Source: Roseibacillus sp. (GTDB lineage Bacteria; Verrucomicrobiota; Verrucomicrobiia; Verrucomicrobiales; Akkermansiaceae). Taken from it: a stretch of 64,000 nucleotides of DNA. Each line of letters begins with the position of its first letter. The stretch's first letter is position 1. The position numbers and the translations under genes are program-made. Below the pieces are notes generated by a model. It was not told where the DNA came from. It saw nothing but the letters and a program-made list of their open reading frames with translations, and made no database searches. The stretch spans positions 224,001 to 288,000 of the forward strand of contig JBPOGI010000005.1 of NCBI GenBank assembly GCA_051251855.1, given 5' to 3'. Shown here in pieces: positions 3,631 to 24,660 of this stretch.

Positions 3631-6600
3631 CTACTCGCTCCAGCCACCGGGGTCTTTGCGGAACGCTTTGAATTTTCCGTCGTTGCGATCCCAGAGGTAG
3701 ACGTGCCAGAGGTAGGAGCGGTAGACGAGTTGGCAGTTTTCGCGGATGTAGAGTTCTTCGCGCGCGGAGGGGTATTCCCAGCGTAGGTTACGTTTACGGG
3801 AACGGAATTTTTCGCGGTTGAGGAGAATCCAGACCCGTTCGTCTTGGGCGAAGACTTCTTGCAGTCCGGCGACGCGGTTGATGACTTCGGCGTCTCCATT
3901 GCGGTCACGGAGGAGTCCGTTGTCGCTGTAGGTGAAGTCGTAGAGGATGGGGACGGCGAGGTCGTAGTCGGCTTGCCCGACTTCCATCTTGGCGGCGTGG
4001 GGATGGGGCTCGGTAATCATGACCTTGTCACCGTCCCGAAGGTTGGCTTTGACGTAACGGAGGCCGGAGATGGGGTCGCCGAGGATTTTTTCTTCGTAAG
4101 AACCGAGGATGCGCCAGGGGCTCCAGCTGAGGAGAACGACGAGAAGGGCGATGTTGCGGAGGAGGTGTGCACCACGCTGGTTGCCGGTCCACCGCTTGAG
4201 GTATTCGAAAAAGACCCACATCCCGTGACAACCTAACAGAACCCAGAGCGCGATGAGGGTGTATTGGTAGCGGAAGCTGGGGGAGGTGATGAGTAGATTG
4301 AGAAAGAGGACTCCGGCGAGGAGGGAGACGTGCAAGACGATGAGGCGTCGATAGCCTGCGCGAAGGGCGTAGATGAGGCTGACAAGCCAGAATACCGAGA
4401 GGGCGATGTGGAGGCGAGAGTAGCCGATGAAGAGGGCGAAGAGGTTGCCGAGTTCCCAGAAGTTGGGGGCGATGGTGGCTTCGACGTTAGGGGAAATGCC
4501 GACGGGGCGGGTCATGCATTTCATTTGGAAAAGGAGGATGTCGATGGCGATGGCGGCTCCGGTGACCATGAGAGCGAGCACGGCTTTGACCTCCCACTTC
4601 CAGTTCACGTCTTTGCCAAAGAGGACATAGAGCACGACGAGAATGGGGACGAAGGAGATGCTGATTTCTTGGCTGAGGACTGCCAAACCAAAGCAGAAGA
4701 TGGCCCACACTCGCCAGCGTGGATTATTGGCCACGATGAAGCCGCGGATGAAGAAATCGATGAGGAGGAGTAGGAAAAGTTGCTGCTGCTGATAGAAGCG
4801 GGCGATGTGGCCGGTGAAGATGAGGAAGGGGTGAACGGCGAAGAAGAAGGTGGCCGCGACCGCGACCCAGCGGCTGTGGCAGTAGGTGTGCGCCATGCGC
4901 CAGACGACCCAGCCGGTGGCGAGGGAGGTAAGCACGGTGAGCATGCGCAGCACCCAAAGGTTGGCGCCGAAAACTTTGGCAAAGAGGCCGGCGAGGTAGT
5001 GATAGCCGGGGCTGCGACTGTACCAGATGCCATCACCGATTTCGGGGAGGCCTGTTTCGGTGATGGAGACCACGGCTTGAATGGAGGCGTATTCGTCGTC
5101 ATCGATGGGTTGCTCCATCATGCGGTAGGCGCGAGGGATGAGGCAAAGAACGAGAAGGAAGGTGAGGGTGAGCCACGCGGGGATGGTGAACTTGGGAGCG
5201 GCCTTTGGTGTTTTCCAAAAGGCGAGGATAGTACCCCCGAACAAGCTGATGGCCAAGACAAGCAAGGCCCACCATCCGGTTCGGAAGAAGAGGTATTCGC
5301 TGCGCTCTAGGAAGGAGAATTTGAGGAAGACGGCGAGTGCGAGGAGGGTGAGGAAACCAATCGCGAAGCGTTCGGCGGTGCGGGATTGGAGCTTGTGGGG
5401 AAGTAGGAAAAGGATGGGGGTGAGCAGGAGGGCGAGGAAGAGGGCCTGCTTTTTCCAAGAGTGGGTGGACCGTTGTTCGCCAATGTAGGTGAGGAGGGGA
5501 AAGTTGGTCCCGGGGCGGGCGGTGTTGTTGCCTAGGATGAGGGGGAATTGCTCGTCTTTCCACTCGGTCTGCCAAGAGCCATTCGATTGGATGCGCGTCT
5601 CTCGCCCACTGTGAGATTGGATGGATGCGTCGAGGGCGACGGCGACGGGGCGACTGCGGCTGTAGCCGGGATGGGGTTCTTGCAGGAGGCGGACGCGGAT
5701 TTCGTTGCGGCCTTTTTTGAGGACGGGTTGGATGCCGTAGCCGTGAAAGTCCTCTTGGCCACGTTCGCGCAGGATTTCGGGAGGGATGCGCCACCAGCCC
5801 TCTTCCAGCACGCCATAGGGATCGGGGTTACCGGCTTTGGGGTCGTCGGGGTCGCCGCCATCATCAAGAAGTTCGCCGGCGGTGGTGGCGGTTTCGCGCT
5901 CTTGGGTGCGGTTGAGGGTGTTTTCGTAGCGTCGGAAGTCGTTGATGGTGGGGTCGCCATGAGCGGGGTTTTCGAAGCGGTTTCCGACAAAGGCGTCGCC
6001 GGTTTCGTCGGGATCGAGAAGGGTGGGGGTGACTGCCAAGGGGCGGCGTCCGCTCCAGCCCACCATCCATCCGCCACTGCCTAGACCCCGCTTTTCGAGG
6101 GAGGGAGGCTGGATGGGGACGTCGTTGACGTAGAGCATGTAGGGCGCGCGGGAGGCGACTCGGACAAAGGCATCGGCGACGCTGTCGGGTTGGTCCCAGT
6201 GATAGACGAAGTCTTGCCCGCTGGTCGCTCCTTGTTTGTTTTGGAGGGCATTGGCAATCATCCATTGGCCGGAGAATTTTTCTTCGAACAATCCTTTGGG
6301 CACAAAAGTGATGGGGCTGCCGCTGAACCGTCGGCCGGCGATGGCGTTGTCCCAGTGTGAGACGTCGGCGTCTTTGTTAGGCCATTGTCGTTGGCCGAGC
6401 CCTTTGGGGACGGGCTCTCCTTTCCAGGTCTCGTTGCTTCGGAGGGAGACGTGCTCGCCGTTTTCCAGTTTGATTTCGCCGGTGAGGCAGAAGGCGACTC
6501 CGGTCCATCGGCCTTCCGTCTCGACCGCGATGCAGTTTTCGCCGGGGTCGAGGAAAGGGCGGATATCAAAGTAGATGGGGGAACGGTGGTTGGCGTGGCC

Positions 6601-7002
6601 AGTCCATTGGTATTCGCGCGGAAAATTGTAGGCCACGGCAGGGCTGCTGGTGACGGAGCGTTGGCCGGATTCGGTGAGCCCGTTTTGGTAGGGGCGGGTG
6701 GCGCGCCAGTAGCTGAGCGCGCCGATGGGATTGCCGTTGATGAGGACTTCGAAGCCACCTTCGGAGGCGATGGTGAGCCAAGCGTGTTCGACTTCGGCGG
6801 TGAGGGAGAAATTTTGGCGGAAGCAGCCGGTGCGCTGGGTGTCGTCTTGCACGCGAATCCACTTGGCGTCTTGAGGGAATTCGAAGGTGCGTCCGAGTGG
6901 TTCGGAGGGGGAGAGGGCGGTTCCGATGATCCACCACAAGCCGCCGATGGCAAAGGCGCAGGCCAGTGCAAAGCGGAGACGGGCGATGGAAGGTTTTCTC
7001 AC
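3631..7002 (-). CDS. Large GT-C fold (PMT/ArnT-like) membrane glycosyltransferase with ~500-aa N-terminal extracytoplasmic beta-sandwich region
   Basis: About a dozen TM helices in the C-terminal half, acidic loop motif IDDDEY, ARFYQ motif; N-terminal part resembles alpha-L-rhamnosidase N-terminal jelly-roll domains (WI..CFRQNF..A.LTI....FEVLING). Confidence 0.75.
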   Translation of the reverse strand: MRKPSIARLRFALACAFAIGGLWWIIGTALSPSEPLGRTFEFPQDAKWIRVQDDTQRTGCFRQNFSLTAEVEHAWLTIASEGGFEVLINGNPIGALSYWRATRPYQNGLTESGQRSVTSSPAVAYNFPREYQWTGHANHRSPIYFDIRPFLDPGENCIAVETEGRWTGVAFCLTGEIKLENGEHVSLRSNETWKGEPVPKGLGQRQWPNKDADVSHWDNAIAGRRFSGSPITFVPKGLFEEKFSGQWMIANALQNKQGATSGQDFVYHWDQPDSVADAFVRVASRAPYMLYVNDVPIQPPSLEKRGLGSGGWMVGWSGRRPLAVTPTLLDPDETGDAFVGNRFENPAHGDPTINDFRRYENTLNRTQERETATTAGELLDDGGDPDDPKAGNPDPYGVLEEGWWRIPPEILRERGQEDFHGYGIQPVLKKGRNEIRVRLLQEPHPGYSRSRPVAVALDASIQSHSGRETRIQSNGSWQTEWKDEQFPLILGNNTARPGTNFPLLTYIGEQRSTHSWKKQALFLALLLTPILFLLPHKLQSRTAERFAIGFLTLLALAVFLKFSFLERSEYLFFRTGWWALLVLAISLFGGTILAFWKTPKAAPKFTIPAWLTLTFLLVLCLIPRAYRMMEQPIDDDEYASIQAVVSITETGLPEIGDGIWYSRSPGYHYLAGLFAKVFGANLWVLRMLTVLTSLATGWVVWRMAHTYCHSRWVAVAATFFFAVHPFLIFTGHIARFYQQQQLFLLLLIDFFIRGFIVANNPRWRVWAIFCFGLAVLSQEISISFVPILVVLYVLFGKDVNWKWEVKAVLALMVTGAAIAIDILLFQMKCMTRPVGISPNVEATIAPNFWELGNLFALFIGYSRLHIALSVFWLVSLIYALRAGYRRLIVLHVSLLAGVLFLNLLITSPSFRYQYTLIALWVLLGCHGMWVFFEYLKRWTGNQRGAHLLRNIALLVVLLSWSPWRILGSYEEKILGDPISGLRYVKANLRDGDKVMITEPHPHAAKMEVGQADYDLAVPILYDFTYSDNGLLRDRNGDAEVINRVAGLQEVFAQDERVWILLNREKFRSRKRNLRWEYPSAREELYIRENCQLVYRSYLWHVYLWDRNDGKFKAFRKDPGGWSE

Positions 7003-7008
7003 GGAGAG

Positions 7009-8508
7009 TTAGAGGCCTTTCGATTGGCGGCGGGCTTCGGCGGCGGCGGTCATGTTTTCCGCGTTCCATTCTCCTTGCGAGAGGATGAGCCAGGAGGTGG
7101 AGATGACACCTCGCTTGTCCTTGCGGAGATAGGGGCCGTAGAGTTCTTGGATTTCGCGCTGGCGGCGGCGGTTCTGGGCAATGTCACCCACTTGCAGGCT
7201 GGTGAGTTGGTGATGGAAGCGCGCTTGGATGGCGGTGGGTTCGGTTTCGCAGAGGCGGCCAAATTGCTGATGGGCTTCGGCGAGGCGTCCGGCATTGAAG
7301 TCGTCGATGGTGACACGCATCCATGAGCGGGAGAGTTCCCGTTGCCACTCGGGGGGGAGGTCGCTGCGGCGCTCTTCGAGGCTTTGGAGAACTTCTTTGG
7401 CGCGTCCGCCATAGCCGAGCTGTTCCAGTTTCCAGATCTGATAGAGTTGCGCGCAAGTGCTATCGAGTTTGAGGAGAGTTTCGGTGCGGCCTTGTTGCAA
7501 AATGAGGGAGGTGTCGAAGCGGAGGGCGGGCATCCACTTTTGAGCGGATTTGATTTCTTGGAGGCTTTCTTGATAGTTGCCGTCGAGGGTGGCGGTCTTG
7601 GCGGCGCGGAGGTGTTTGCTGGCGTTGAGAACGGGGACGAGTGCGGAGGCGACGAGGATGAGAGTGCTGGCGGCGACTGCTATGCCAGCTCGCTTGAGGA
7701 GGGTTCGACGTCCTTTGTTCGGCATTTGTTTGAGGAGTCCGAAGGCACCCATTCCAAAAGCGATGGCACCGAGCCAAGCAACGAACCAGCCTCGGCCGAC
7801 GAATTGAGAGAAGGCGGGGTTGAGTCCGAACCACCAGATGACTTCGGGGATTTCCTCGATACCCAAGGTGGCGAGGGAGTCCATGGGAGTGCGGAAGGCG
7901 GCCAGAAAGATGGGAGGATCTTGCATGTTGGCCACGAGTTGAATCTCGTTGTAGCGCTCGGAGTGGGCGCGGAAGACGTCGCCACCCAGCCACGTGAGAT
8001 TGTCGTGTTGCTGCTGCAGCCAAGCGGCGTCGCCGGAGGTTTCGACGTCTTGCACGATGACCCATTGGGGATACCACCAGACGAGGGGGAAAACGGACAT
8101 GGACCAGAGAAAGGACCAGGCGAGAAGGTTGTGGGCGATAGCGGGAACTCGTCCGAAGGAGATGGTGTGCAGGGCGTGCTTGATTTTTTGCAGGAAGCGC
8201 TTGAGAAGGCGCTTGGGGAAGGAGCCGGAGAGGGGAGCGCGGTGGGCCTTTGCTTTTACGCGTTCGGCTTTCCAATGGCGAAGAAAGGAGGGGCCTTGTC
8301 TCCAAAGAATCAGAACACATCCGAGGACCCAAATGGTCAAGGCGATGAGGAGTCCGGCTTTGAAGTATTTGGTCACCGGGGAGTCGCGGACGGTGGCGGT
8401 CCCGTCGGCTTCCCATCCTTGCGGAAGAGTGAACCAGCTTTCCTTGAGAGCGAGGGCCATCAGGAGCAGCCCGACAAGGAAGACTCCCAATGCCGCGAGC
8501 CTAGCCAT
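7009..8508 (-). CDS. Membrane protein (~5 TM) with C-terminal TPR-like helical domain, function unknown
   Basis: Several hydrophobic segments followed by amphipathic helical repeats; overlaps the adaptor stop codon by 8 nt, suggesting an operon. Confidence 0.6.
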   Translation of the reverse strand: MARLAALGVFLVGLLLMALALKESWFTLPQGWEADGTATVRDSPVTKYFKAGLLIALTIWVLGCVLILWRQGPSFLRHWKAERVKAKAHRAPLSGSFPKRLLKRFLQKIKHALHTISFGRVPAIAHNLLAWSFLWSMSVFPLVWWYPQWVIVQDVETSGDAAWLQQQHDNLTWLGGDVFRAHSERYNEIQLVANMQDPPIFLAAFRTPMDSLATLGIEEIPEVIWWFGLNPAFSQFVGRGWFVAWLGAIAFGMGAFGLLKQMPNKGRRTLLKRAGIAVAASTLILVASALVPVLNASKHLRAAKTATLDGNYQESLQEIKSAQKWMPALRFDTSLILQQGRTETLLKLDSTCAQLYQIWKLEQLGYGGRAKEVLQSLEERRSDLPPEWQRELSRSWMRVTIDDFNAGRLAEAHQQFGRLCETEPTAIQARFHHQLTSLQVGDIAQNRRRQREIQELYGPYLRKDKRGVISTSWLILSQGEWNAENMTAAAEARRQSKGL

Positions 8509-9988
8509 TGCTTTGGTAGTCGAATTCGCGAGTCTCCGTGACTTCGATTTGGTCGGACTCGCGGAGAATCCAGTGGCCTTCGACGATGACTTCTTCTCCG
8601 GGTTGAATACCGTCTAGAATTTCGACGGCGTAATCATCGACGATGCCCACTTCGACTCGGCGCGCCTGCCAGCCTGACTCGTCATCCTTCATGTAGACCA
8701 CGCCGGCTCCAGCTGAGATGGAGAGGAGGGCGGACCTGGGGATGGCGATTCCGGTTCGGGTGACTGTGAGGCGTCCGAAGCCAGTCATGCCCATCGCGAC
8801 GGGCTTGGTTTCGGGGAGGTTTTGGAGGGTCATGCGCGCTTTGAAAGTGGCGGCCCACTCGGGTGCTCCTGAACCACGAGGGCGGAGAGGGCGGGAGATT
8901 TCGGGGCCTCCTTCGTTGAAGCTGATGACGGGGGTCACGTTTTCGATTTCGGCTTGGAAGGAGTGACCGGGATAGGCTTCGAGCCGCACTTCGCCGGTGA
9001 GGCCTTTTTCCACGAAAGAGAAATCGGATTGGTCGTAGTAGGCTTCGAACCAAAGTCCGCTGACGACCACGAAGCCAGGCTTGCCGGGGTCAGCATTGTA
9101 TTCGCCTTCCTTGATGAGGGTGCGCTCGACGATGCCGTCGATGGGGGAGAGGATTTGATAATTCTGGAGTTCGAGCTCACGATGCGCGACGGCTTCGCGA
9201 GCATCACGGACAGCGTTGCGTGCGATTTGGAGACTTTCGGTGACGCCTTTCTCGGCCATCTGAACGCGGACGAGAGCTTCTCCATAGCTTTGTTCGGCTT
9301 CGGCGAATTCTTTTTCGGCATTGAGGAGGGCGGTCTTGGCGACGACCCCTTTTTCGAAAGCGCGGCGATAGCGTTCCACCATGTCGCGAGCGAGGGCGAC
9401 CTTTTCGGTTTCGGCTTTGACGTTCAGCTTCTCCATGTTGGGCCGCTCTTGCGCGAGGACGTAGGCGGAGCCGGCGACGACGCGCGCGAGTTCGGCTTCG
9501 GCAGTGGAAACGGCGAGCTGGGCACTGGCGAGTTTGATGTCGGCGAGTTCGCTATCGAGCTCGGCCATGACGTCGCCTTTTTTGACGCGGTCTCCTTCTT
9601 GAAAGTGGACCTTGGTGATGGGGGCGAGCGGGACGAGAGGGATGAGGATGGGGTCGCTGGCGCAGACGCCTTCGCCCATGATGAAGCGGGTGAATTCGCG
9701 TTCGCCAGCAGGGGAGACGACAACGGGAAGCGGCTTGTCCATCTTGCGCATCATGGCGGGGTAGCCGAGACCCGAGCTATAGAACTTGGTGGCGGGATCC
9801 ATGTAGGAAGGCCAGAGGACTTTCCAACCCACGGCGAGGATGAAGAGACCGAGGATGAGCCCTCCCCAAAGGAGTCCGCGATTGTCGCGGATGAGCTCGC
9901 TGATCACCCTCGTGAGACGTTTCCACCAAGAGGGATTCTCGGGTGGGAGGTCTTCGGTGGAAGTTGAACTGGAGGAGGAGTTGGGCAT
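8501..9988 (-). CDS. Efflux RND/HlyD-type periplasmic adaptor (membrane fusion protein)
   Basis: One N-terminal TM, lipoyl half-motifs (VHFQEGDRVKKGDVMAEL; ILSPIDGIV), long coiled-coil hairpin, C-terminal VEVG..VEILDGIQPGEEVIVEG. Confidence 0.9.
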   Translation of the reverse strand: MPNSSSSSTSTEDLPPENPSWWKRLTRVISELIRDNRGLLWGGLILGLFILAVGWKVLWPSYMDPATKFYSSGLGYPAMMRKMDKPLPVVVSPAGEREFTRFIMGEGVCASDPILIPLVPLAPITKVHFQEGDRVKKGDVMAELDSELADIKLASAQLAVSTAEAELARVVAGSAYVLAQERPNMEKLNVKAETEKVALARDMVERYRRAFEKGVVAKTALLNAEKEFAEAEQSYGEALVRVQMAEKGVTESLQIARNAVRDAREAVAHRELELQNYQILSPIDGIVERTLIKEGEYNADPGKPGFVVVSGLWFEAYYDQSDFSFVEKGLTGEVRLEAYPGHSFQAEIENVTPVISFNEGGPEISRPLRPRGSGAPEWAATFKARMTLQNLPETKPVAMGMTGFGRLTVTRTGIAIPRSALLSISAGAGVVYMKDDESGWQARRVEVGIVDDYAVEILDGIQPGEEVIVEGHWILRESDQIEVTETREFDYQSNG

Positions 9989-10217
9989 GAATCGAACTGT
10001 TCAAGAGTAATGATAGTCGACTGGTATAAAATGATAGATGAATTGGCACTTGGGGCTAGCCCTGAGTCCGCCATCAAAAGAGGGCCCCACCCGATCACCG
10101 CTCCATTCCACTAGACGGTTTTCGAGTGAGGCTTTTGGGGGAGTGTGAGAGGCTCTTGAGGATATGCAAGTTGGCGAAGTGAGAGCTAGGCTTCGTTGTC
10201 TCTTGAGTCCGCGAATC

Positions 10218-10412
10218 TTAGAGAGGAAAGGTGATGGTGAGAACCAGTGCCGCCGCTAGGGCGACACCAGTATTAACCACTAATCACCAACCAACAGATT
10301 CCGGTAGAAAAGACGCTTTGCACAGACTGCCAAGCCATGGCTGCCAAGGAGTTCTAAAAGAAGAGAGGCTGCTTTTCTCTAGAGGAGATTCGTTTAGATT
10401 TTCACTTTCCAA
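10218..10412 (-). pseudogene. Possible small membrane-protein gene interrupted by an in-frame TGA (10284-10286)
   Basis: Frame from TTG reads LESENLN...PESVGW*LVVNTGVALAAALVLTITFPL*; lies in the gap between GT2 and the adaptor gene on the same strand. Confidence 0.3.
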
Positions 10413-10431
10413 ATAGATTTCTATCCGTTTG

Positions 10432-11490: not shown

Positions 11491-11506
11491 GGCAATGCTT
11501 GTGCCA
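11491..11506 (-). promoter_or_regulatory. sigma54 -24/-12 promoter for the GT2 operon
   Basis: Minus strand reads TGGCAC-AAGCA-TTGCC (consensus TGGCAC-N5-TTGC), ~30 nt upstream of the GT2 ATG. Confidence 0.85.
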
Positions 11507-11597
11507 GCTTTACTTGGTTGATTTGTAATTATTTGTAATTGAGTGAGTTGCGTCCATAATGGGCAGTGCCAACTTGATGGGCTGAGTCTGGCATCCG

Positions 11598-11641
11598 GTA
11601 AAATTTTCTGTGTTCGGTGACCTTGACCCAGTAAGAAAAAC
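11598..11641. promoter_or_regulatory. Candidate enhancer (UAS) pair for the sigma54 activator
   Basis: GTAAAATTTTC (11598) and GTAAGAAAAAC (11631), similar to boxes at 20137/20168 upstream of the second sigma54 promoter. Confidence 0.4.
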
Positions 11642-15094: not shown

Positions 15095-18000
15095 TTAGTA
15101 GTCTCCGTTTTGGCTGTCGCTGTAGCCATCGTCGCCATCCCAATCGGAGGTGATGTCAGGGCTGCCTTCGCGATAGGCTCCGTTGTGGAAGCTCATGGGG
15201 ACGAGGGCAGGAGTGATACGGATTTGGGCTCCGGAGAAGGTTTCGGTGCTGTTAGCGCCTGCTTCTTCGTTGGCTGCAGCTCTGGTGTAGTCCTCGATGC
15301 AGACCAAGGTGGAGACCTCATTGCTGAAGATGAGGAACTGGTCCTTGGCTTCGGGGTTGGCATTGTTGAGGCTGAAGAGAGGCTGTCTCTTGAGGTCGTC
15401 ACCAGCGCCGCGAGGGGTGTAGCGGTGGGGGTTGCTGTTGAATTTATCGACGGTGTTGTTAGGAATCAGCATCAATCCCAAGTTCTTTCCTGCCAGGCCA
15501 AGGGCAGCGGGATTAATAGTGATTGATTTGCCGGCTCCTGCTTCACGATTGTCGAAGATGAGCTCGGAGAGGTAGCCTGCCACTTGACGGGAAGCCAAAG
15601 TTTCGGGGCTCCAGAGTGAGACTTCGTCGTAGTCGTAGATGGCGAGAGAGAACTCCATCGCGCTGTCGTCGCTCAACAGGTCAAAGGTGACGCTATTGGT
15701 TCCGGCAGGAACGTAGAGCAATTCGGCAGTGGACTCATATTGAGGGTCGTTCATTCCCACTTGTTCCAATATGGAATGAACGCTTGAAGAGTCCACTGCC
15801 TCCTTGTCTGCAACCAATCCAAATTGGGAAGTTCCCAAGGAGGATGGTAAGATTTCCACCATGATGATGACGTCGTTGAAGTCGTTATCGCGTCCGGCAA
15901 AAAGTTGGTCTTCGAAGGCCAAGACGATGGGGTCACCGTCGACTTCCTTAAGCTCGATGTTAGAGGCGCTGAATTCCATTCCGGCAGGGTTCAAGAAAGA
16001 GTCCTGATAGATACGCTTTTCGCCACCATTGCCACCATCCATTACCAATCCAAAGCGGAGTTGGCTGCCGGCAGGAAGAATGCCGAGGCTCACCGAGGAG
16101 CCGGGAATGAGGGGTGCCGTTGGGCCAGTGGCGAAGTTCTTCCAGATAGGCTTCCAAGTTCCTTGGGGGTCTTCGGCATCGTAGTAAGCGAGGGTGTTGT
16201 GATATTCGGCTCCGTCAAAGATGACGGTCACAAAGACTTCGCTGTCCTCTTGGAGGTAGAATTTTTCTTCATCGAAACCACGCTTCTCTTGTTCGAGGGG
16301 AATGCCCTCGGTGTTGCAATTAAGGAGATACTTCACCTCGTTCCAGATGGAGCGAGCCTGTTGGTAAAACTCGGGATAGACACCATATTGGGACAGAATG
16401 TCGACGTTACTGATGTCGAACTCAATGAAGTTGTCTTCCAAGTTGCAAAGAGGGCAGGGGTCGATGGCAGTCGGAATTTCGTCGCCGTCGTCGTCAAAGT
16501 CCTGGAAGTTGAGGATGCCGTCGCCATCTGAGTCGCGGGGGTCCGTTCCGTCAGAACCGGCTTCTTCAGCGTCTGAGAATCCGTCATCGTCAGAGTCGGT
16601 GTCGAGGTAGTCGGGAGTGCCGTCGCCATCGGTGTCGCCAGTTCCTTCCAAGCCATTGGGGATGCCGTCATTGTCTTCGTCGCGGTCATCGAAAGCGTCG
16701 AGATAGTTCGGGTTGCCGTCGCCGTCCTCGTCGCCGAGTCCGTCAGAGGCATCGGTCACGCCATCGTTGTCGGAATCAGTATCGAGGAAGTTAGGTGCTC
16801 CGTCTTGGTCGAAGTCTCCGCTTTGTTCTTCGCTGTCATTGAGCCCGTCACCATCGGCATCGGAGTCCACGTGGTTCGCTTGTCCGTCTTGGTCGATGTC
16901 GAAGACGTCAGGGATGCCGTCGCCGTTACTATCAGTGTAGTCGGTGAGAGAGCCGTCGCCGTTGTCGCCGTCATCACGAGAGTCGGTCCAGTTGCTGATG
17001 CCATCGTTGTCTTCGTCTCCGGTAGGGTTGTAGCCGCTGCCTTCCAATTCGTCATGGACGCCGTCGTTGTCATCGTCGAGGTCGTACTCGTCGTTGATTC
17101 CGTCGCCATCGCTGTCGAGAGCGAGGATAGCATCAGGGCAGATGGTGCCGTCGTTGATGCCTGTCTTGGGTGCGCTAGCCATCCAAGTGACAGCTCCATT
17201 GGTAAGGTTCACGCGGAAGGCTCCGGTGCCCTTGTTGTCGAAACCATAAACAGTTCCGTTAAAGTCGCAGATGAGCGCGCCGAAGGTTTTGCCATTGTTT
17301 CCAAGAATTTTGGTCGCTCCGGTCGAGCGGTCTATCTTGATGAAATCGCCCCTCGAGGTGCTGCCATAAAGAATGCCGTCCACTTTGTTGTAGGCGAGGT
17401 CAATGACTGCTCCTCTGGGCTTAGGGCTGAGCTTTGCCTCGGAGACAACAACCAGGCCATCGACATCGATTCCGTAGATACGTCCGCCACCTGAAACCCA
17501 GTAGAGGTCGTCTTCGGCAAATGTTCCGGCGACGTAGGAGTTGGGCAGTCCAGAGATGAGACCCGCTTTGGCGACACTGCCATCGCTACCGATACGGAGA
17601 AGCTCGGGGCGGTTCTCGCTGCGGTTGAGGCCGTAGATGTAGTTGTTTTTTCCGCGGTAGCCGATGGCGTTGTAGTTGAGACCGTGGTCGGTGTTGCCAA
17701 GGTTGACGAATACGCCGGCATTGACGTCAACGAGAGCCAGTTGGGTCTGTGCGTTGTAAGACTCGAAAGCATAGCCGCTGCAAGTGAAGTTAGGCTGGTA
17801 GTCGCGGTAGTCGGGGATGCCGTCAGCATCGATGTCGTTGAAGAATTCGACGGAGTCTAACAGTCCGTCGTTATCGGAATCGATGTCGAGGTAGTCGGGG
17901 GTTCCGTCATTGTCGGTGTCGGCAGTGAGGGTTTCTTCCTCATTCCACAATCCGTCGTTATCAGAGTCCTCACCGGGGGCGTCGGGGGTGCCGTCGTTGT

Positions 18001-19975
18001 CGGAATCTGAGTCCAAGTGGTCGGGGATTCCGTCACCGTCAAAGTCACCGGAACCTTCGCGGAAGTCTTCGATATTGTCGTTGTCGGAGTCGATGTCTTG
18101 GTAGCCGGGGATTCCGTCGCCATCAGGGTCGAGGTTGCTGTCATCAATATCCAAGATGCCGTCTCCGTCGGAGTCGAGGTCGAGGAAGTTGGGGAAGCCG
18201 TCTTGGTCGAAGTCAGCTTGTCCTTCGTATTCGTCGCTCAGACTGTCGTTGTCAGAGTCACGGTCAAAGAAGTTGGCGGAACCATCACCATCGGAATCGG
18301 TTGTGATGGGTGAGAAGGCAATGGCGTCGAGAGCGAAAGCGGTTTGCTGCAGGGTGGTTTTGACGCTGTAGATTTCCAGCTTGATCGTGGTGTCCGAACC
18401 GTTGCTGTATCCTGCGAAGAAGCGTTCCCATTCTCCGGGTGCTCCGCCTGTGATAGGAACTCCGAGAGAGATGCCGTTGACGCGAAAGTCGAGAGCGGGC
18501 TCAAGTCCTTCGATGGCGGAGGCGACTTCTGCAGAGAAGACATACTTCGCTTCAGGCGAGACTTCGATTTCTTGGCTCCAAACGAGTTCGTTGGCGGTGG
18601 GTCCGGTCCAAACGACCATCATGTTTCCTCCGTTATTGGCATCGCCAAAGTCAGGGAAGTTTGCGGTGGCGTCGTTCGCGTTTTCAGCGATTTCAAAAGC
18701 ACCTTCGGGCTGAGAGACACCTTCGTCCAGGTCGCTGAGGGTGCGGGTGTATTGAGTTTCAAAATTGAGGGGAGTTTTGTTGAAGTTACCATTAGAAATG
18801 AGGTTCTCGGCCTGGCCAACTGCAAAGGCTTCTTCGAAGTTCGAGATGCCGTCGCCGTCAGTATCGGAGTCGTCCCCGTCAGGAATACCGTCTTCATCAG
18901 AGTCAGTATCGAGATAGTTGGGGATGGAGTCGCCGTCCAAGTCGAGGGAACCTTCCACTGCATCAGCAACGCCATCGTTGTCGGAGTCGGTGTCGAGGTA
19001 GTCGGGGGTGGAGTCGGCGTCGGTGTTCTTTTCACCTTCAACAGCGTCGAGAATGCCATCACCGTCAGCGTCGAGGTCTTGGGAGTTTGCGAAGCCGTCG
19101 CCGTCGTTGTCGAAGAGCCCTTCAGTGATATCGAGGATGCCGTCGTTGTCAGAGTCACGATCGCGGTAGTTGGGGAGTCCATCATTGTCGAAGTCAGCGC
19201 TCCCTTCGTCTGCGTCAGAGATTCCGTCTGCGTCCGAGTCTTTGTCGAGGTAGTCGGCGATGCCGTCACCATCGGTGTCTACGGCGCTGTTCCAAAATTC
19301 ACCAGCAGGGACGAGGTAGCTTTCCACGCCACGGGACCAACCCCAGAATTCGGCGCGAATCTCAATGTAGGCGAGGTCAGAGAGAACCCGAGTGAGACGA
19401 GAGTCGCTAGTTTCGAAACTCTCGGGGGTAAGAGGAATCTGATACTGATAGATTTCGCGATACTGTTCCTGCAAAGGAAGGATCTCGAAGCCGCCATGCT
19501 TGAGGTTGGCTTCGACGCGTTCTCCGCTGCTCGAAACGAGTCGGACGTCAGCCGTTGAGGTTGAGGCCCAAGGGGAGCCGATTTCGCGACCGAGGTTCTG
19601 AACCCAAATTCCAAAGTTGAAGGAAGCACCTTTGGCGGAGCTTTGGTCACCGGTCCATTTGTTGAGGCGATAGTAGCCATATCCTGAGGAGTTGTCTTCG
19701 AAGGAAATAGCGGTGATTTGATCGTTCGCTCCAATAGCAGTCGGGGCGCTGAGGATTCCGCCGTTTGCGGTGACGACTCTTTCCTTGAGGTCGGATGCGC
19801 TAAGGACGAGGTCTTGAGAGGAATAGCTGACTGAAGGTTTTTCGAAGTGGTCCGAAAGACTGTCAGAGTCGCTATCCTGCCCGGAGACTGTGAGAATAGA
19901 ACCAACGAGAATGGCCGCGGTCTTGGAAGCGAACGGGCTTGAAGATGAGGGGGTGGTGAACGGTGATTGAAACAT
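15095..19975 (-). CDS. 1626-aa multidomain exoprotein with thrombospondin type-3 (DxDxDG) Ca-binding repeats; adhesin/matrix candidate
   Basis: Dozens of DxDNDGIPDYLDxDSD repeats separating a laminin-B-like N-terminal domain (RVLSDLAYIEIRAEF), a CBM-like domain (NLISNGNF), a YNAIGY..NYIYG propeller and C-terminal AFED..DNDFNDVI (DUF4114-like) domains. Confidence 0.8.
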   Translation of the reverse strand: MFQSPFTTPSSSSPFASKTAAILVGSILTVSGQDSDSDSLSDHFEKPSVSYSSQDLVLSASDLKERVVTANGGILSAPTAIGANDQITAISFEDNSSGYGYYRLNKWTGDQSSAKGASFNFGIWVQNLGREIGSPWASTSTADVRLVSSSGERVEANLKHGGFEILPLQEQYREIYQYQIPLTPESFETSDSRLTRVLSDLAYIEIRAEFWGWSRGVESYLVPAGEFWNSAVDTDGDGIADYLDKDSDADGISDADEGSADFDNDGLPNYRDRDSDNDGILDITEGLFDNDGDGFANSQDLDADGDGILDAVEGEKNTDADSTPDYLDTDSDNDGVADAVEGSLDLDGDSIPNYLDTDSDEDGIPDGDDSDTDGDGISNFEEAFAVGQAENLISNGNFNKTPLNFETQYTRTLSDLDEGVSQPEGAFEIAENANDATANFPDFGDANNGGNMMVVWTGPTANELVWSQEIEVSPEAKYVFSAEVASAIEGLEPALDFRVNGISLGVPITGGAPGEWERFFAGYSNGSDTTIKLEIYSVKTTLQQTAFALDAIAFSPITTDSDGDGSANFFDRDSDNDSLSDEYEGQADFDQDGFPNFLDLDSDGDGILDIDDSNLDPDGDGIPGYQDIDSDNDNIEDFREGSGDFDGDGIPDHLDSDSDNDGTPDAPGEDSDNDGLWNEEETLTADTDNDGTPDYLDIDSDNDGLLDSVEFFNDIDADGIPDYRDYQPNFTCSGYAFESYNAQTQLALVDVNAGVFVNLGNTDHGLNYNAIGYRGKNNYIYGLNRSENRPELLRIGSDGSVAKAGLISGLPNSYVAGTFAEDDLYWVSGGGRIYGIDVDGLVVVSEAKLSPKPRGAVIDLAYNKVDGILYGSTSRGDFIKIDRSTGATKILGNNGKTFGALICDFNGTVYGFDNKGTGAFRVNLTNGAVTWMASAPKTGINDGTICPDAILALDSDGDGINDEYDLDDDNDGVHDELEGSGYNPTGDEDNDGISNWTDSRDDGDNGDGSLTDYTDSNGDGIPDVFDIDQDGQANHVDSDADGDGLNDSEEQSGDFDQDGAPNFLDTDSDNDGVTDASDGLGDEDGDGNPNYLDAFDDRDEDNDGIPNGLEGTGDTDGDGTPDYLDTDSDDDGFSDAEEAGSDGTDPRDSDGDGILNFQDFDDDGDEIPTAIDPCPLCNLEDNFIEFDISNVDILSQYGVYPEFYQQARSIWNEVKYLLNCNTEGIPLEQEKRGFDEEKFYLQEDSEVFVTVIFDGAEYHNTLAYYDAEDPQGTWKPIWKNFATGPTAPLIPGSSVSLGILPAGSQLRFGLVMDGGNGGEKRIYQDSFLNPAGMEFSASNIELKEVDGDPIVLAFEDQLFAGRDNDFNDVIIMVEILPSSLGTSQFGLVADKEAVDSSSVHSILEQVGMNDPQYESTAELLYVPAGTNSVTFDLLSDDSAMEFSLAIYDYDEVSLWSPETLASRQVAGYLSELIFDNREAGAGKSITINPAALGLAGKNLGLMLIPNNTVDKFNSNPHRYTPRGAGDDLKRQPLFSLNNANPEAKDQFLIFSNEVSTLVCIEDYTRAAANEEAGANSTETFSGAQIRITPALVPMSFHNGAYREGSPDITSDWDGDDGYSDSQNGDY

Positions 19976-20040: not shown

Positions 20041-20056
20041 GGCAATCACCGTGCCA
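20041..20056 (-). promoter_or_regulatory. sigma54 -24/-12 promoter for the TSP3 exoprotein (and probably FG-GAP) genes
   Basis: Minus strand reads TGGCAC-GGTGA-TTGCC, ~65 nt upstream of ATG 19975. Confidence 0.88.
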
Positions 20057-20136
20057 GCGGGGTAAATATTTCTTTAACTCTCTTATAATCAGCAGTTAAA
20101 CGAGATGGGGGTCAGTTATAGAGAAAGCGGATTCCT

Positions 20137-20178
20137 GTAAGAAATACCGTCCCAGCGATATACTTTGGAACCCTTTAC
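20137..20178. promoter_or_regulatory. Candidate enhancer (UAS) pair for the sigma54 activator
   Basis: GTAAGAAATAC (20137) and GAACCCTTTAC (20168); AT-rich IHF-like TAACTCTCTTATAATCAGCAGTTA (20075-20098) lies between them and the promoter. Confidence 0.4.
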
Positions 20179-20205: not shown

Positions 20206-22281
20206 TTATTGAGAAGAAAGGACGAGGGAAGTGAGCTTCTCGCGGACTTCGTTAGGTCGGAGGGGTTTGGCCAGATAGTCGGTCATTCCGGCCTCTAAAC
20301 AGGCTTCTTCGTCAGACTTGAGGGCGTTTGCGGTGACCGCAAGAATAGGAATCTCTCGATAGCTCTCGCCAGCCTCTCCCTTACGAATGAGTCGAGTGGC
20401 TTCGAGACCGTCCATTTCCGGCATTCTCATATCCATCATGATGAGGGCAAACTCGGAATTCTCTTTCAGCATTTCTAGCGCTTCACAGCCGTTGACGGCA
20501 ATCTGGCAGCGGCAGTTAAGACTTCTAACAATCAGAGCAGCCAGACGTGCGTTGATGGGATTGTCTTCCGCGATGAGAATAAGAGGGTTCTCATTGGCTT
20601 TTGCGGATGATTCTTTCTCTTCAAGAGGAGGTGAAACAGAGGGCGTAGGCTTTTCTCCAAGAACGAGGCTTCTCAGGGTCTTGAGAAGTTCGCGTTGGCG
20701 GAGGGGTTTGAAGAGAACTTTGGCGAAGCCTTCCTGATAGGCGCGCTCCTTGTCGCCCGTGAGACGGGACGAGGTGACCAGAACGAGAGGAGCCTGTGTG
20801 AATTCGCGGACGGCTCCTGCCAGTTCGATGCCGTCCATGCCAGGCATCATCATGTCGATGAGGAGGACGTGAAACTGTTCCTGACTGGCGAGTTGGAGAG
20901 CTTCGTCTCCTGTGGAAGCGTTGGAAACCGAGAATCCCCAATACTGAAGCCGCTTTCTTAAGAAGATGATGTTGTTTTCATTGTCGTCAACAATGAGTGC
21001 ATGTTTGGCGGCAAAGAGGGTGCTGGTGTCCTCCTCGGTATCGATGGCCTGGCCGGCTTGCAGGGGGAGGGAGAAGCGAAACTCGGCTCCTTGTCCTTCT
21101 TTGCTCGTTGCCTTGATTGTTCCCCCCATTCGTTCCACAAGGCTCCGACAAATCGCGAGACCTAATCCTGTCCCGCCGAACTTGCGGGTGGTCGAGGCGT
21201 CTTCTTGACTGAAGGGCTGGAAAAGATTTTCAGCGAGCGAAGGGTCGAACCCGACGCCCGTGTCTTTCACCGCAATCCAAATGGTTTCTTCGGTTAGCGA
21301 AACCAAAGTGGTGATGGTGCCTGTGGCGGTGAACTTGAGAGAATTGGAAATCAGATTCATCAGAACCTGACGAAGTCGAGTGACGTCGCCACTGAGAGAC
21401 TGCGGAATTTGAGGGTCGATTTCATAGAGCAGCTCGAGCCCCTTTGAGGAGGCGGTTTGAGCATGAAGGTCTAGCACCTCTTCTAGGCAGTCTCGGAGTT
21501 CGTAGTCGACTTCTTCGAGCTCGACCTTACCGCTCTCAATACGGGAAAAGTCGAGGATGTCGTTGATGATGTGGAGAAGGATGTCGCCGCTTCGTTGGAC
21601 CATCTCCAGGTTCTGCTTCTGCTCGGAAGTGAGATCGCTATTCAGGACAAGGTCGGTGAAGCCAATAATCCCGTTGAGCGGAGTTCTGATTTCGTGGCTC
21701 ATGGTGGCGAGAAAGAGAGATTTGGCCTCATTCGCCTTCTCTGCCTCTATGCGGGCGAGCTTGAGATCTTGGTAGGCTGCCTTTCGGGCTGAGATATCGC
21801 GAATGATGCCCTGTATGAGAAAGTCGTCGCCCACTTTGGCTCGGCTGCCCACGATTTCGGTGGGGAAGGTCGTGCCATCAGACCGAACGAGAAGTGCCTC
21901 GTATCGACAATAGCCGGTGTCTCGCACTTGATTGAAGGCGTTGCGAGCGATAGACCAGTCTTCCTTCGATACGATGCGAGCGACCCCTTTGCCCGAGAGT
22001 CTCTCCTTGGGGTAGCCGAGCATCTTTTCTGCGGTGTGGTTCATCTCCACGATTTGGCTTCGCTTATTGAGCAGGACGATGCCATCCATGGAGGCCTCAA
22101 AGATGGCCGTAAATCTTTGTTCTTGGACTTCTAAGCGAGAACCTTTCTCCGCGACTTGTTGTTCGAGGAGGTTGTTCGCTTCAAAGAGTTCAAGGCTTTT
22201 AACTTCTAACAGACGCTCCGCTTCTTTACGGGCGTTGCGCTCGCGTTCAAGACGCTTTTTCCATTTGTCGGCCTCGTCCAT
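20206..22281 (-). CDS. Cytoplasmic hybrid histidine kinase (coiled coil-PAS-HisKA-HATPase-REC-REC), H-NOX-associated
   Basis: ERERNARKEAERLLE coiled coil, PAS, FLATMSHEIRTPLNGIIG H-box, NLISNSLKFT, DTGVG, GGTGLGL, two receivers (LLIDMMMP, IMMDMRMP); no TM. Confidence 0.93.
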   Translation of the reverse strand: MDEADKWKKRLERERNARKEAERLLEVKSLELFEANNLLEQQVAEKGSRLEVQEQRFTAIFEASMDGIVLLNKRSQIVEMNHTAEKMLGYPKERLSGKGVARIVSKEDWSIARNAFNQVRDTGYCRYEALLVRSDGTTFPTEIVGSRAKVGDDFLIQGIIRDISARKAAYQDLKLARIEAEKANEAKSLFLATMSHEIRTPLNGIIGFTDLVLNSDLTSEQKQNLEMVQRSGDILLHIINDILDFSRIESGKVELEEVDYELRDCLEEVLDLHAQTASSKGLELLYEIDPQIPQSLSGDVTRLRQVLMNLISNSLKFTATGTITTLVSLTEETIWIAVKDTGVGFDPSLAENLFQPFSQEDASTTRKFGGTGLGLAICRSLVERMGGTIKATSKEGQGAEFRFSLPLQAGQAIDTEEDTSTLFAAKHALIVDDNENNIIFLRKRLQYWGFSVSNASTGDEALQLASQEQFHVLLIDMMMPGMDGIELAGAVREFTQAPLVLVTSSRLTGDKERAYQEGFAKVLFKPLRQRELLKTLRSLVLGEKPTPSVSPPLEEKESSAKANENPLILIAEDNPINARLAALIVRSLNCRCQIAVNGCEALEMLKENSEFALIMMDMRMPEMDGLEATRLIRKGEAGESYREIPILAVTANALKSDEEACLEAGMTDYLAKPLRPNEVREKLTSLVLSSQ

Positions 22282-22287
22282 GGCTTG

Positions 22288-22821
22288 CTACTGCAAGATG
22301 ATGTGAAAAAGTTCGCGCTCATCTGGGAGGGTTTCGCGAGTGATAGTGGCGCTTTCCTTGTAGTGGTCGGTAGCGCCCCGAATCAGGCCTTCGCAGAGGT
22401 CCTCAAAGTGGCGAGAAGATTCATAGGTCATCTTGAGCTCTTTGGGGCCGACTCGATCACATTCAAAGCGAGGGAGCTCGGCGTCAGGGTAGAGCTTGCG
22501 GACTTCGACGTGAATATGATGCTCGATGCTCTCGAACATATCAAGGGAGGTCGTGAGGCCTTCTCCAAATTGGGGGTAGGCTCCGATAAGGATCCCGAAA
22601 AGATGCTTTCCGAAGGCCTGTAGGAGAACGGGGACCTCGATTTCGGTCTCTTGGCTGAGGGTGACCACGAGATTGACAATCTCGGTGTGATCGTAGGTGC
22701 CTACTGCGGTGTAAATTCCTCCTGAGGGAAGGTCTGACTTTTCGATGAGAGTATCAACCATGTCGAAGCCGTGGGCTTCTTCCACCATTTCTAGAAAACT
22801 TGTAAAGACGACGCCTTTCAT
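22288..22821 (-). CDS. H-NOX (heme NO/oxygen binding) protein
   Basis: MKGVVF start, YTAVGTY, proximal His in IHVEVRKLYPDAELP, YxSxR motif (YESSR). Confidence 0.93.
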   Translation of the reverse strand: MKGVVFTSFLEMVEEAHGFDMVDTLIEKSDLPSGGIYTAVGTYDHTEIVNLVVTLSQETEIEVPVLLQAFGKHLFGILIGAYPQFGEGLTTSLDMFESIEHHIHVEVRKLYPDAELPRFECDRVGPKELKMTYESSRHFEDLCEGLIRGATDHYKESATITRETLPDERELFHIILQ

Positions 22822-22861: not shown

Positions 22862-24223
22862 CTACATGAGACCGTGCCGCTTGAGCTTGTTATAGACCGA
22901 CTTTTCGGTGATGCCAAGGCGGCGGGCTGTCTCGGCCTTGTTCCCATTACAAAGCCGGAGAGTCTGGGTGAGCGCTTCTTTTTCCAGTTGGGCGAGTGAG
23001 ATTCCGCCTAAGCCAGAGATGTTGAGGTCCGAATCTTCTTGGGACTGTCTTCTGACTTCGCGCGGGAGGTCTTTGGCTTCGATGCGGCCGTCGTCGCAGA
23101 AGGCTGCCGAGCGCTCGAGAATGTTCTCGAGTTGGCGCACGTTGCCTGGCCAGTCGTATTCGCGCAGAATTTGTAGAGCCTCGGCGGAGATGGTGAGTTT
23201 TTTCCGGTTTTGGCGCCCCGCGATTTTTCCGAGGAGAGCTTCGGTGAGATGGCTGATGCCATCGATGCGCTCGCGGAGAGGAGGGATTTCGATAGGGATG
23301 ACGCTGAGTCGGTAGTAGAGGTCCTCGCGAAACTCGCCATCGGCAATCTTTTGTTCGAAGTCGATATTGGTGGCGGCGATGATGCGGACATCGGCTTGTA
23401 AGATTTCTTCACCCCCAACGCGTTGAAATTCTCGGTCTTGCAGCACGTTGAGAAGCTTTGGCTGGAGGTCCATAGGGAGGTCTCCGATCTCGTCTAAGAA
23501 GAGAGTGCCGCCTTTGGCTGCCTCTATTTTTCCGATGCGTCGTTTCAGTGCTCCAGTGAAGGCGCCTTTCTCGTGACCAAAGAGTTCACTCTCTAACAAC
23601 TCTCGTGGCAGGGCTGGGCAGCTGACAGTAATGAAGGGTTTTTCGTGGCGAAGACTGTTGGAGTGGATTAAGCGAGCGAGCACTCCTTTACCGACTCCGC
23701 TTTCTCCAGTGAGGAGAACGGTGGAGTCGAGAGGAGCGATTTTCTCAGCCTGGCGAACCACTTCCTCCATCACTTGAGACTCAGCAACCATGGGGACTTG
23801 TGGGCCCAAGCCACCGATGGTTTCACGAAGACCCTCGTTTTCTCGCTCCGCACGACGCAAGCGCCGAGCATTGGCGAGAACGGCCATCAGTTCATCAGGG
23901 TCGAAAGGTTTGGTGAGGTAGTCGACGGCACCCAACTTCATGGCCCGGACGGCATCAGCCGCTTCGTCGGCGGCACTCAGCACCACGGCGGGGATGGAAG
24001 GGTAGTCTTTTGCCATGCGCTCCAGGCATCCAAAGCCATCGAGCTTGGGCATGTTCAGGTCGAGGAGGACGACTTCGGTCTCGTCATCGAGAAGCTTCAT
24101 CGCCTCCTCTCCGTCTTCAGCCTCCAAGACTTCGTATCCTTGTTTGTGGCCATGGATACCAATGATTCTCCGGATGACTTCGTCATCGTCGGCGACGATC
24201 AATTGGCTTTTCTTCTGACTCAT
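22862..24223 (-). CDS. sigma54-dependent response regulator (REC-AAA+-Fis HTH; NtrC/AtoC family)
   Basis: LLDLNMP receiver, GESGVGK Walker A, ESELFGHEKGAFTGA, LFLDEIG, WPGNVRQL, C-terminal HTH. Confidence 0.95.
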   Translation of the reverse strand: MSQKKSQLIVADDDEVIRRIIGIHGHKQGYEVLEAEDGEEAMKLLDDETEVVLLDLNMPKLDGFGCLERMAKDYPSIPAVVLSAADEAADAVRAMKLGAVDYLTKPFDPDELMAVLANARRLRRAERENEGLRETIGGLGPQVPMVAESQVMEEVVRQAEKIAPLDSTVLLTGESGVGKGVLARLIHSNSLRHEKPFITVSCPALPRELLESELFGHEKGAFTGALKRRIGKIEAAKGGTLFLDEIGDLPMDLQPKLLNVLQDREFQRVGGEEILQADVRIIAATNIDFEQKIADGEFREDLYYRLSVIPIEIPPLRERIDGISHLTEALLGKIAGRQNRKKLTISAEALQILREYDWPGNVRQLENILERSAAFCDDGRIEAKDLPREVRRQSQEDSDLNISGLGGISLAQLEKEALTQTLRLCNGNKAETARRLGITEKSVYNKLKRHGLM

Positions 24224-24366
24224 TGAAACTGTGGGGGTGAGCGCTAAAATAGATTGATATTCTGGATTGGTAAAGTTATTAAGAGGGCCATCTTACCCCC
24301 TTAACTGTTATCGAATCCTCTTCTTCCAAAATTGATACTGTCCAACTGAACGCAATATCCAATGGG

Positions 24367-24660
24367 ATGCCGGAAATGGTTTTGGAGATCTTGCAGGATT
24401 TTGGCTCCAGTTTCAGCGAGGAGTTAGCGAAACTGAGTGGCGATCCCTCAGCGGTAGAGGCATCCAATTGGCAAGACTTCTTTCATCGCGCTAAAGGTTC
24501 AGGCGGAACCCTCGGACTCGTTGTCCTTCAAGAGTTGTGTGCGAAGTTGGAAGCGAACGCTAAAGAAGGTCAGCTTCCCAGTGAAGACTCTTTGAAAGAG
24601 TTTGGAACTCTGTTGAAGGACTCTTGTGATGAGGCCGAGGCGTTCTTGAGTCAGTCCTAG
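24367..24660 (+). CDS. Stand-alone Hpt (histidine phosphotransfer) protein; true start may lie upstream
   Basis: FHRAKGSGGTLG (HxxKGxxxxxG) and LQELCAKLE; divergent from the sigma54 regulator; frame open back to 24283. Confidence 0.85.
   Translation: MPEMVLEILQDFGSSFSEELAKLSGDPSAVEASNWQDFFHRAKGSGGTLGLVVLQELCAKLEANAKEGQLPSEDSLKEFGTLLKDSCDEAEAFLSQS

Follow-up and report, generated by a model that had tools for sequence, protein, structure and literature searches.

A candidate nitric oxide-responsive phosphorelay linked to σ54-dependent glycosylation, export and exoprotein genes in Roseibacillus

A 64,000-nucleotide stretch of the genome of a Roseibacillus species (Verrucomicrobiota; contig JBPOGI010000005.1, positions 224,001 to 288,000), referred to below as the window, encodes an H-NOX protein, a hybrid histidine kinase, a stand-alone Hpt protein and a σ54 activator beside genes for glycosylation, export and an exoprotein. 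In our numbering the window is G000:C9:224001-288000, and genome G000 comprises 4.96 Mb (95% complete). These genes probably belong to one phosphorelay, in which the phosphorylated activator would bind a palindromic enhancer and fire two σ54 boxes, and in which H-NOX with bound nitric oxide (NO) would shut down the output by inhibiting the kinase. This reading rests on the genes and their catalytic motifs, on their linkage in relatives, on a conserved box with a phased upstream palindrome and on a conserved recognition helix in the activator. The features, with domain calls from Pfam and NCBIfam profile scans and positions counted within the window, are as follows.

3631..7002, minus strand: GT-C fold glycosyltransferase with an ArnT/STT3-like membrane domain and two N-terminal lectin/rhamnosidase-type sugar-binding domains (PMT_2; structure model)
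7009..8508, minus strand: 499-residue membrane protein with about four hydrophobic helices and an all-helical, probably TPR-like C-terminal part (hydropathy; structural look-alikes)
8501..9988, minus strand: membrane fusion protein, or periplasmic adaptor (TIGR01730 above cut-off; HlyD_D23, HlyD_3)
9989..10431, no strand: gap at the place where several relatives have GT4 and LPG_synthase_TM (flippase-like) genes, neither of which is here
10432..11460, minus strand: GT2 of the ArnC/GtrB type, a predicted polyprenyl-phosphate sugar synthase (Glycos_transf_2)
11492..11506, minus strand: σ54 -24/-12 box of the GT2 operon, exact match to TGGCAC-N5-TTGC, predicted transcription start near 11480
11595..11611, no strand: candidate enhancer palindrome CGGWAA-N3-TTWCCG, centred 97 bp upstream of the GT2 box (matrix rank 1 of 335)
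11645..13147, plus strand: NodT/TolC-family outer-membrane factor (OMF), divergent from GT2 (TIGR01845 above cut-off)
13634..15037, minus strand: FG-GAP repeat protein with an N-terminal signal-like sequence (FG-GAP_2, six stretches)
15095..19975, minus strand: acidic exoprotein of 1626 residues with Laminin_B-like, TSP3-type (32 DxDxDG repeats), DUF6923 and DUF4114 regions
20042..20056, minus strand: σ54 box of the exoprotein operon, exact match to TGGCAC-N5-TTGC, predicted transcription start near 20030
20134..20150, no strand: weaker candidate enhancer, centred 86 bp upstream of the exoprotein box (three mismatches to the consensus)
20206..22281, minus strand: soluble hybrid histidine kinase with an N-terminal helix, PAS, HisKA and HATPase domains and two receivers
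22288..22821, minus strand: stand-alone H-NOX (HNOB)
22862..24223, minus strand: σ54 enhancer-binding response regulator with intact GAFTGA and helix-turn-helix (domain profiles)
24367..24660, plus strand: stand-alone Hpt, divergent from the activator (Hpt profile above cut-off)

An initial annotation of this DNA had placed all four parts of a phosphorelay within 20206-24660, and the profile scans confirmed every one of these genes at its place. The activator, H-NOX and hybrid kinase genes form one minus-strand run, from which the Hpt gene diverges. The OMF gene (11645-13147, plus strand), which also belongs to the module, had been left out of that annotation's gene list.

The H-NOX protein (177 residues; HNOB, 131.5 bits in Pfam) stands alone, with no MCP fusion. 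Among 114 sequences its heme contacts H104, Y133 and S135 are invariant and R137 is kept in at least 90%, and the closest solved structures are 6OCV and 6BDE. We take the distal Tyr of the O2-binding class to fall in the region of residues 138-146, going by its expected offset from YxSxR rather than by alignment, and inspection of the sequence finds no Tyr there. Such a distal Tyr is needed for O2 binding in H-NOX proteins (PMC8738867). The protein is predicted to bind heme, and NO rather than O2. The kinase gene is adjacent and co-oriented, 7 bp away, and encodes a protein with an invariant phospho-acceptor (H196 in 23 sequences) and no membrane helix by hydropathy. A predicted complex between H-NOX and the kinase dimer scored an ipSAE of 0.54, against 0.10 for the best control, with contacts that agreed to at least 92% between runs and a partner pLDDT of at least 86. 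This lends weak support to an interaction: the ipSAE mark was passed by 116 of 157 solved pairs and 2 of 215 mismatched pairs, yet the passes at 0.60 or below comprise just 18 of the solved pairs and both of the mismatched ones. As of 2022, no structure of an H-NOX/kinase complex had been solved, according to the same paper (PMC8738867).

The activator has its receiver, an AAA+ domain with GAFTGA and a helix-turn-helix, the genome contains rpoN, and phospho-acceptor and catalytic motifs are intact. Hpt homologues bearing HxxKG adjoin the signalling block in 11 relatives; the true start of the window's Hpt may lie about 15 codons upstream, where the open frame continues.

The signal itself admits another interpretation, in which the activator drives these promoters but H-NOX reports heme status, redox, CO or O2, or in which NO acts as an activating signal, by way of the second receiver or of a phosphatase switch. 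The kinase does have a PAS domain of its own and two receivers, and no NO synthase or NirK scored above cut-off in the 95% complete genome, so that any NO would have to be supplied externally or be made by an enzyme not covered by the search. Against this interpretation, the proximal His and the YxSxR motif are intact, the segment where an O2 binder is expected to have its distal Tyr contains none, and H-NOX is stand-alone and kinase-adjacent, like the NO-selective class. We regard it as unlikely, and favour inhibition of the kinase by NO-bound H-NOX.

Exact TGGCAC-N5-TTGC matches occur just twice in the window, correctly oriented upstream of the GT2 gene and of the exoprotein and FG-GAP genes, as had been claimed initially. 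Their number by itself carries little weight. One-mismatch boxes in the window number 6 against a mean of 3.2, a value reached in 9 of 100 shuffles; exact boxes in the whole genome number 19 against 10.4 expected, and a wrong spacing of 8 yields 20, for which reason the exact-box count was dismissed as evidence. About 6 of these 19 lie between genes in a suitable position, including the two in the window. The significance of the boxes lies rather in their conservation in relatives and in the phased palindrome upstream. A TGGCAY box is found 44-48 nucleotides before the GT2 start in G001, G004, G005, G006 and G007, and the exoprotein box is retained in G001:C62, G004:C16, G005 and G058. In seven GT2 promoters (G004, G005, G006, G007, G204, G257 and G280) the -12 element departs from GC (ATGA, ATGG, GTGA, CTGA, TAGC); in the same seven, the -24 element is perfect and the DNA separating the enhancer from the box is rich in AT.

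In relatives, the centre of the palindrome CGGWAA-N3-TTWCCG lies 96-99 bp upstream of the GT2 -24 box, with frequent repeats near -116 and -128. A matrix of 18 sites from 10 promoters of relatives, the window being excluded, was scored on the 335 relaxed boxes of G000. The window's GT2 promoter ranked first (21.1 bits) and its exoprotein promoter third (11.3 bits), the next score being 7.5. Second place went to G000:C1:188609 (minus strand), whose two palindromic sites are at -98 and -128 and whose -12 element is ATGA; this promoter precedes an 84-residue frame whose start resembles the GT2 N-terminus, apparently a decayed GT2-like gene. Box and palindrome occur together at 12 of 21 GT2 copies (11 of 16 genomes), the background rates being 3 in 335 for relaxed boxes and 0.3% for random windows, and five of the 12 (G058, G141, G204, G257 and G280) belong to genera that were not used to derive the motif. 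At the GT2 promoter of G265, two palindromes accompany a TGGTAC box. Across all fetched loci, the palindrome was found near 34 of 273 distinct relaxed boxes, with centres clustered at -85 to -87, -94 to -100, -108 to -110, -115 to -121 and -128 to -130, that is, one helical turn apart, and with none from -84 to -13. The phased motifs are conserved; the spacer sequence is not.

The palindrome is probably the activator's binding site, as suggested by its conservation at GT2 promoters, its phased offsets and the activator's recognition helix, LGI(T/A/S)EKS(V/I)YNK, which is kept in orthologues and different in the genome's three paralogues. In G054, G118 and G170 (L093, L110, L152, L163), the activator family and the palindrome with its box occur at other exopolysaccharide clusters, an apparent swap of output; the genes there encode WecG-STAS, a GT2-sugar transferase fusion and GT4s, with WecG, hexapeptide and sugar-transferase genes in G118. 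An exact enhancer-plus-box pattern matched 35 of 301 genomes, mostly background (a backwards control matched 18), and missed known sites in G004, G007, G204, G257 and G265; it was used solely for position near the activator: in 5 of the 16 activator-bearing genomes, a match lies no more than about 23 kb from the activator on the same contig. Four other intergenic exact boxes in G000 lack the palindrome, one of them preceding a P-II gene; boxes of this kind include G000:C1:1411739, G000:C6:347630 and G000:C6:590755.

These observations bear on a further alternative, namely that the boxes are genuine but are served by another activator, and that the H-NOX relay acts mainly post-translationally, through the receiver that some GT2 copies carry. 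Along with rpoN, G000 encodes four σ54 activators including that of the window. One example of such another activator (G000:C1:1837286-1838896) has GSFTGA and no recognisable C-terminal helix-turn-helix; an exact box at 1837516 points away from it. GT2-receiver fusions do exist, in G000:C12, G022, G058 (two) and G074. Within G000, the fused receiver is the nearest to that of the activator (90.5 bits, the next being 69.3), and in a receiver tree the GT2 receivers are sister to the activator receivers with weak support (84/63), which hints at a second, post-translational branch. In G228, moreover, the relay and export genes are present and no activator orthologue was found. The palindrome, however, is absent from the four other intergenic boxes, follows the activator family into other gene clusters and, as the exact pattern, lies near the activator gene in the five genomes just mentioned. 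We therefore consider it improbable that another activator is responsible, and retain the activator of the window as the likely regulator of both promoters.

Conserved linkage of signalling and target genes, whose absence had been named initially as one of the results that would refute the module reading, was found in 13 relatives from eight genera. The comparison covered stretches around the H-NOX or activator genes of 23 relatives in addition to the window, and a locus counted as linked if H-NOX, together with the kinase on contigs that extend that far, lay next to one or more output genes. The 13 (G001, G004, G005, G006, G007, G022, G058, G141, G204, G228, G257, G265 and G280) span two families and show several gene orders and orientations. 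In three of the 23 (G054, G118 and G170), the activator lies beside different glycosyltransferase clusters, and in seven (G002, G014, G024, G125, G172, G301 and G306) the fetched stretch contains no output gene. In a set of 40 relatives, searches found H-NOX in 9 genomes, a full-length or partial GT-C in 10 (one a weak match) and both in 7. An order-level draw of 301 genomes gave some H-NOX in 70, the activator in 16, GT-C in 14 and both of the latter in 10, including G000; 14 of the 16 activator-bearing genomes have an H-NOX match. A phylum-wide draw of 301 genomes added two weaker matches alone (48-49%), beside other kinases. As the order-level activator search and the phylum-wide one each scored five candidates per genome, misses are possible. 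H-NOX genes are thus common in the order (32 of 66 genomes in one genus), and most are of another class; one mapped other-class locus in that H-NOX-rich genus (G038) lies among glycosyltransferase genes. No module genes were found at nine loci of other-class H-NOX (G038, G236, G210, G188, G112, G106, G302, G303 and G301, the kinase of the last aside). G280 (L120:7222-11780) has the whole module with a different class of H-NOX and an HNOBA-PAS-GAF kinase, which suggests that heme sensing was retained when the sensor was replaced.

Least probable of all is that the cluster is an inherited island of adjacent, functionally separate units, partly decayed in G000: its patchy distribution, the loss of the GT4 and flippase genes here, the decay of GT2 in G014 and G007 and the output genes lying apart from the signalling block in G014, G306, G002 and G074 would fit, but linkage persists though order and orientation differ (G000, G004, G006, G007, G022, G058, G228), a non-orthologous H-NOX/kinase pair occupies the same place in G280, and the phased promoter motifs are conserved where the spacer is not, the shared enhancer by itself already weakening such an account.

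The output genes suggest lipid carrier-dependent glycosylation coupled to an outer-membrane channel. The GT-C protein has 1123 residues, and its model (pLDDT 86.8, from a 112-row alignment) matches ArnT, AglB and PglB in the membrane part and Pleurotus lectin and rhamnosidase domains in the N-terminal part; D634, D636 and E637 are invariant in 112 sequences. When its profile was compared with solved sequences, the sugar-binding part alone was matched. The 499-residue membrane protein, annotated initially as TPR, has no Pfam or NCBIfam match, and that label rests on a structural likeness: its look-alikes are TPR proteins (0.95-0.96, with a recognition score under threshold). Its single-sequence fold was of low confidence (pLDDT 46.7) and was not used for structure search. 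In the intact loci examined, its gene sits between those for the adaptor and GT-C. GT2 has two C-terminal helices, and its best NCBIfam matches, ArnC and PgfS, are both under cut-off. Its most likely start is ATG 11460, with which orthologues agree; GTG 11712 overlaps the OMF gene, is unmatched by orthologues and was rejected. The divergent OMF-GT2 pair is retained in most loci, and the FG-GAP gene comes after the exoprotein gene in G001, G002, G004, G005, G006 and G007.

In G001, G002, G204, G257, G265, G280 and G141, GT4 and LPG_synthase_TM genes stand between GT2 and the adaptor; we infer that the latter encodes a flippase. The corresponding gap in the window (9989..10431) contains no protein relic of either gene and, in the scan, no σ70 promoter or terminator. 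A paralogous trio at G000:C12:60014-63749 consists of GT2 with a C-terminal receiver, GT4 and LPG_synthase_TM, and does not have the box-plus-palindrome promoter. Decayed GT2 copies are found in G014 and G007; in G014 (L054:16661-17443), short GT2 and GT4 relics lie between a flippase-like gene and OMF, in the region whose two genes are gone from the window.

Of the features of three-component glycosylation, the donor synthase and GT-C are thus present in the window and the flippase gene is absent. The lectin domains of GT-C favour a glycan as acceptor, and the recurring adjacency of GT2 and exoprotein genes in G005, G006 and G007 favours the exoprotein; the core of adaptor, TPR-like protein and GT-C is intact where no full-length exoprotein is nearby (G280, G228, G141). 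The exoprotein was also considered as a type I substrate of the adaptor and OMF, which is doubtful because its homologues start with segments that look by eye like signal peptides. No ABC, RND or MFS pump gene was found by Pfam or NCBIfam among the window's flanking genes. The adaptor's neighbours in relatives are module genes, though some unmatched neighbours were unscanned, and a pump encoded elsewhere is possible.

By analogy with Vibrio fischeri, the kinase would be active when NO is absent, passing phosphate from its receiver to Hpt and on to the activator, which once phosphorylated would bind the palindrome and start transcription at both σ54 boxes, so that the surface genes would be on. 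NO from a host, a neighbour or an unsearched enzyme would bind H-NOX, and the complex may then bind and inhibit the kinase, as HnoX does HahK and as in the HqsK system, switching these genes off. As for the products, GT2 and GT4 would charge polyprenyl-phosphate with sugar, the LPG_synthase_TM protein would flip the charged carrier, and GT-C would transfer the sugar in the periplasm, the acceptor being either a surface glycan or the acidic exoprotein. The adaptor and TolC-type channel could form the outer conduit, and the result may be an adhesive or matrix layer. G000 would depend on the paralogous trio of G000:C12 for the GT4 and flippase steps.

A more ambitious version of this scheme is rather doubtful. 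In it, the output would be a hitherto undescribed pump-less export machine, in which the lectin-bearing GT-C builds or attaches a periplasmic glycan that is passed via the TPR-like scaffold and adaptor to the TolC-type channel. A single NO-controlled Hpt would set both transcription, through the new enhancer, and enzyme activity, through the GT2-fused receiver, the whole being an independently assembled, single-locus NO attachment switch in marine Verrucomicrobia.

Several observations weigh against a single phosphorelay controlling all of these genes. On the promoter side, 9 of the 21 GT2 copies are without box and palindrome by pattern (in G002, G014, G022 and G074, and second copies), although G002 and G022 bear the activator. 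Several exoprotein copies have no box, and the window's own exoprotein enhancer is a three-mismatch site. The window's own promoters were among those from which the consensus was initially derived by visual inspection, and the kin are not independent. The signalling block occurs without an output gene in the fetched stretch in G014, G024, G172 and G301; in G228 H-NOX, kinase and Hpt genes adjoin those for export, and a search for an activator orthologue found none; GT-C occurs without an activator orthologue in G074 and G306, and the activator without an H-NOX match in G125 and G170. The unit is also not intact, the window copy having lost the GT4 and flippase genes. The initial annotation had called the regulon self-contained, which does not hold: those two genes are represented only by paralogues on G000:C12, a third promoter lies on G000:C1, and the genome has three further σ54 activators, one without a recognisable helix-turn-helix. 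Its broader proposal, that sensor, relay, activator and targets form one module, gains support from the linkage, the conserved boxes and the shared enhancer.

Other genes lie close to the module. A Rex-like redox regulator and a C39-like peptidase (1469-3624, plus strand) converge on the GT-C gene and are unlinked to the module in mapped relatives. Three huge secreted-looking proteins of 1179, 1261 and 1911 residues, with no family match above cut-off, are encoded convergently after Hpt (24657-37814, minus strand); two of them also adjoin the signalling block in G001, and a 1911-residue homologue lies about 15 kb from a different H-NOX in G210.

The four-step logic of H-NOX, kinase, Hpt and σ54 activator is already known from Vibrio. 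New here are its one-locus Verrucomicrobial version, the enhancer, and an output in which glycosylation from a lipid carrier is combined with an adaptor and a TolC-type channel but no pump. In the literature searched (mostly open-access), we found no description of the locus, its enhancer or its output, no CGGWAA-N3-TTWCCG palindrome and no route coupling a GT-C to an adaptor and TolC-type channel; one paper that touches on both H-NOX and Verrucomicrobia shows no link between them in its accessible part (PMC9500659). The locus would give Verrucomicrobia a concrete circuit from NO to the cell surface, its parts, starts and enhancer predicted to the base, and its output genes point to a GT-C that works together with an adaptor and a TolC-type channel. 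It is present in the cultured strains Roseibacillus persicicus, R. ishigakijimensis, Haloferula rosea, H. chungangensis and Luteolibacter algae (L172-L178). The Vibrio version is scattered over the genome and entangled with several kinases, whereas a one-locus version would permit the whole path from H-NOX to σ54 to be rebuilt.

The initial annotation invoked Shewanella HnoX/HnoK and Vibrio H-NOX/HqsK and missed the closest precedent. In V. fischeri, HnoX inhibits HahK, which signals via the Hpt domain of SypF or via LuxU, and SypG activates the σ54 promoters of syp, so that NO turns the output off (PMC12369376, PMC10162802); this precedent implies the same direction here. The two share an hnoX-kinase operon, a hybrid kinase, Hpt, a σ54 regulator and a surface or matrix glycan as output. 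Here, unlike in V. fischeri, the four steps and their targets occupy one locus and Hpt is a dedicated stand-alone gene. The output also differs from syp, at the level of domain content, in its GT-C, adaptor, TolC-type channel and large exoproteins. Membership in the SypG/syp system was rejected, as the palindrome at the target promoters, compared by eye, differs from the SypG enhancer TTCTCANNNTGMDWN (PMC10162802).

In the other Vibrio pathway, H-NOX likewise controls a hybrid kinase, HqsK, that feeds an Hpt protein, LuxU, and a σ54 activator, LuxO; LuxO drives Qrr small RNAs (PMC8738867), whereas the targets here are protein genes. The activator scores 338 against the NF041946 cut-off of 800 and the palindrome differs from the LuxO enhancer, TTGCAWWWTGCAA, so that membership in the LuxO group was also rejected. 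The PrsK/PrsR system with its PEP-CTERM box similarly places a σ54 box and an upstream activator motif before exoproteins, near glycosyltransferases and a TPR gene; that motif was reported from Proteobacteria only, about 63 nucleotides from the σ54 box, and PrsK is a membrane kinase (PMC1569441), the kinase here being soluble. Assignment to PrsR fails on this difference and on the TIGR02915 score (406.9, below the cut-off of 502.6), and none of the three top promoters precedes any of the 35 PEP-CTERM matches.

The GT2 donor synthase, candidate flippase and GT-C transferase resemble the three-component periplasmic systems GtrABC and ArnC/ArnT (PMC11127046). Unlike these, the set here has an extra GT4, an LPG_synthase_TM protein rather than GtrA or MATE as candidate flippase, and a GT-C with two lectin-like domains. 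This GT-C is coupled to a TPR-like membrane protein, an adaptor and a channel of the TolC type. Tripartite efflux and type I secretion systems share the adaptor and OMF, and differ in that no pump gene was found among the window's flanking genes. A parallel to this arrangement is the export of mixed-linkage glucan in Sinorhizobium by BgsA, BgsB and TolC, BgsB being an HlyD-type adaptor. There, too, a glycosyltransferase, TolC and BgsB are proposed to act without a separate pump (PMC13438883). BgsA is a processive GT2 under cyclic di-GMP control (PMC13438883), whereas the large membrane enzyme here is a GT-C whose control is predicted to be transcriptional, via σ54.

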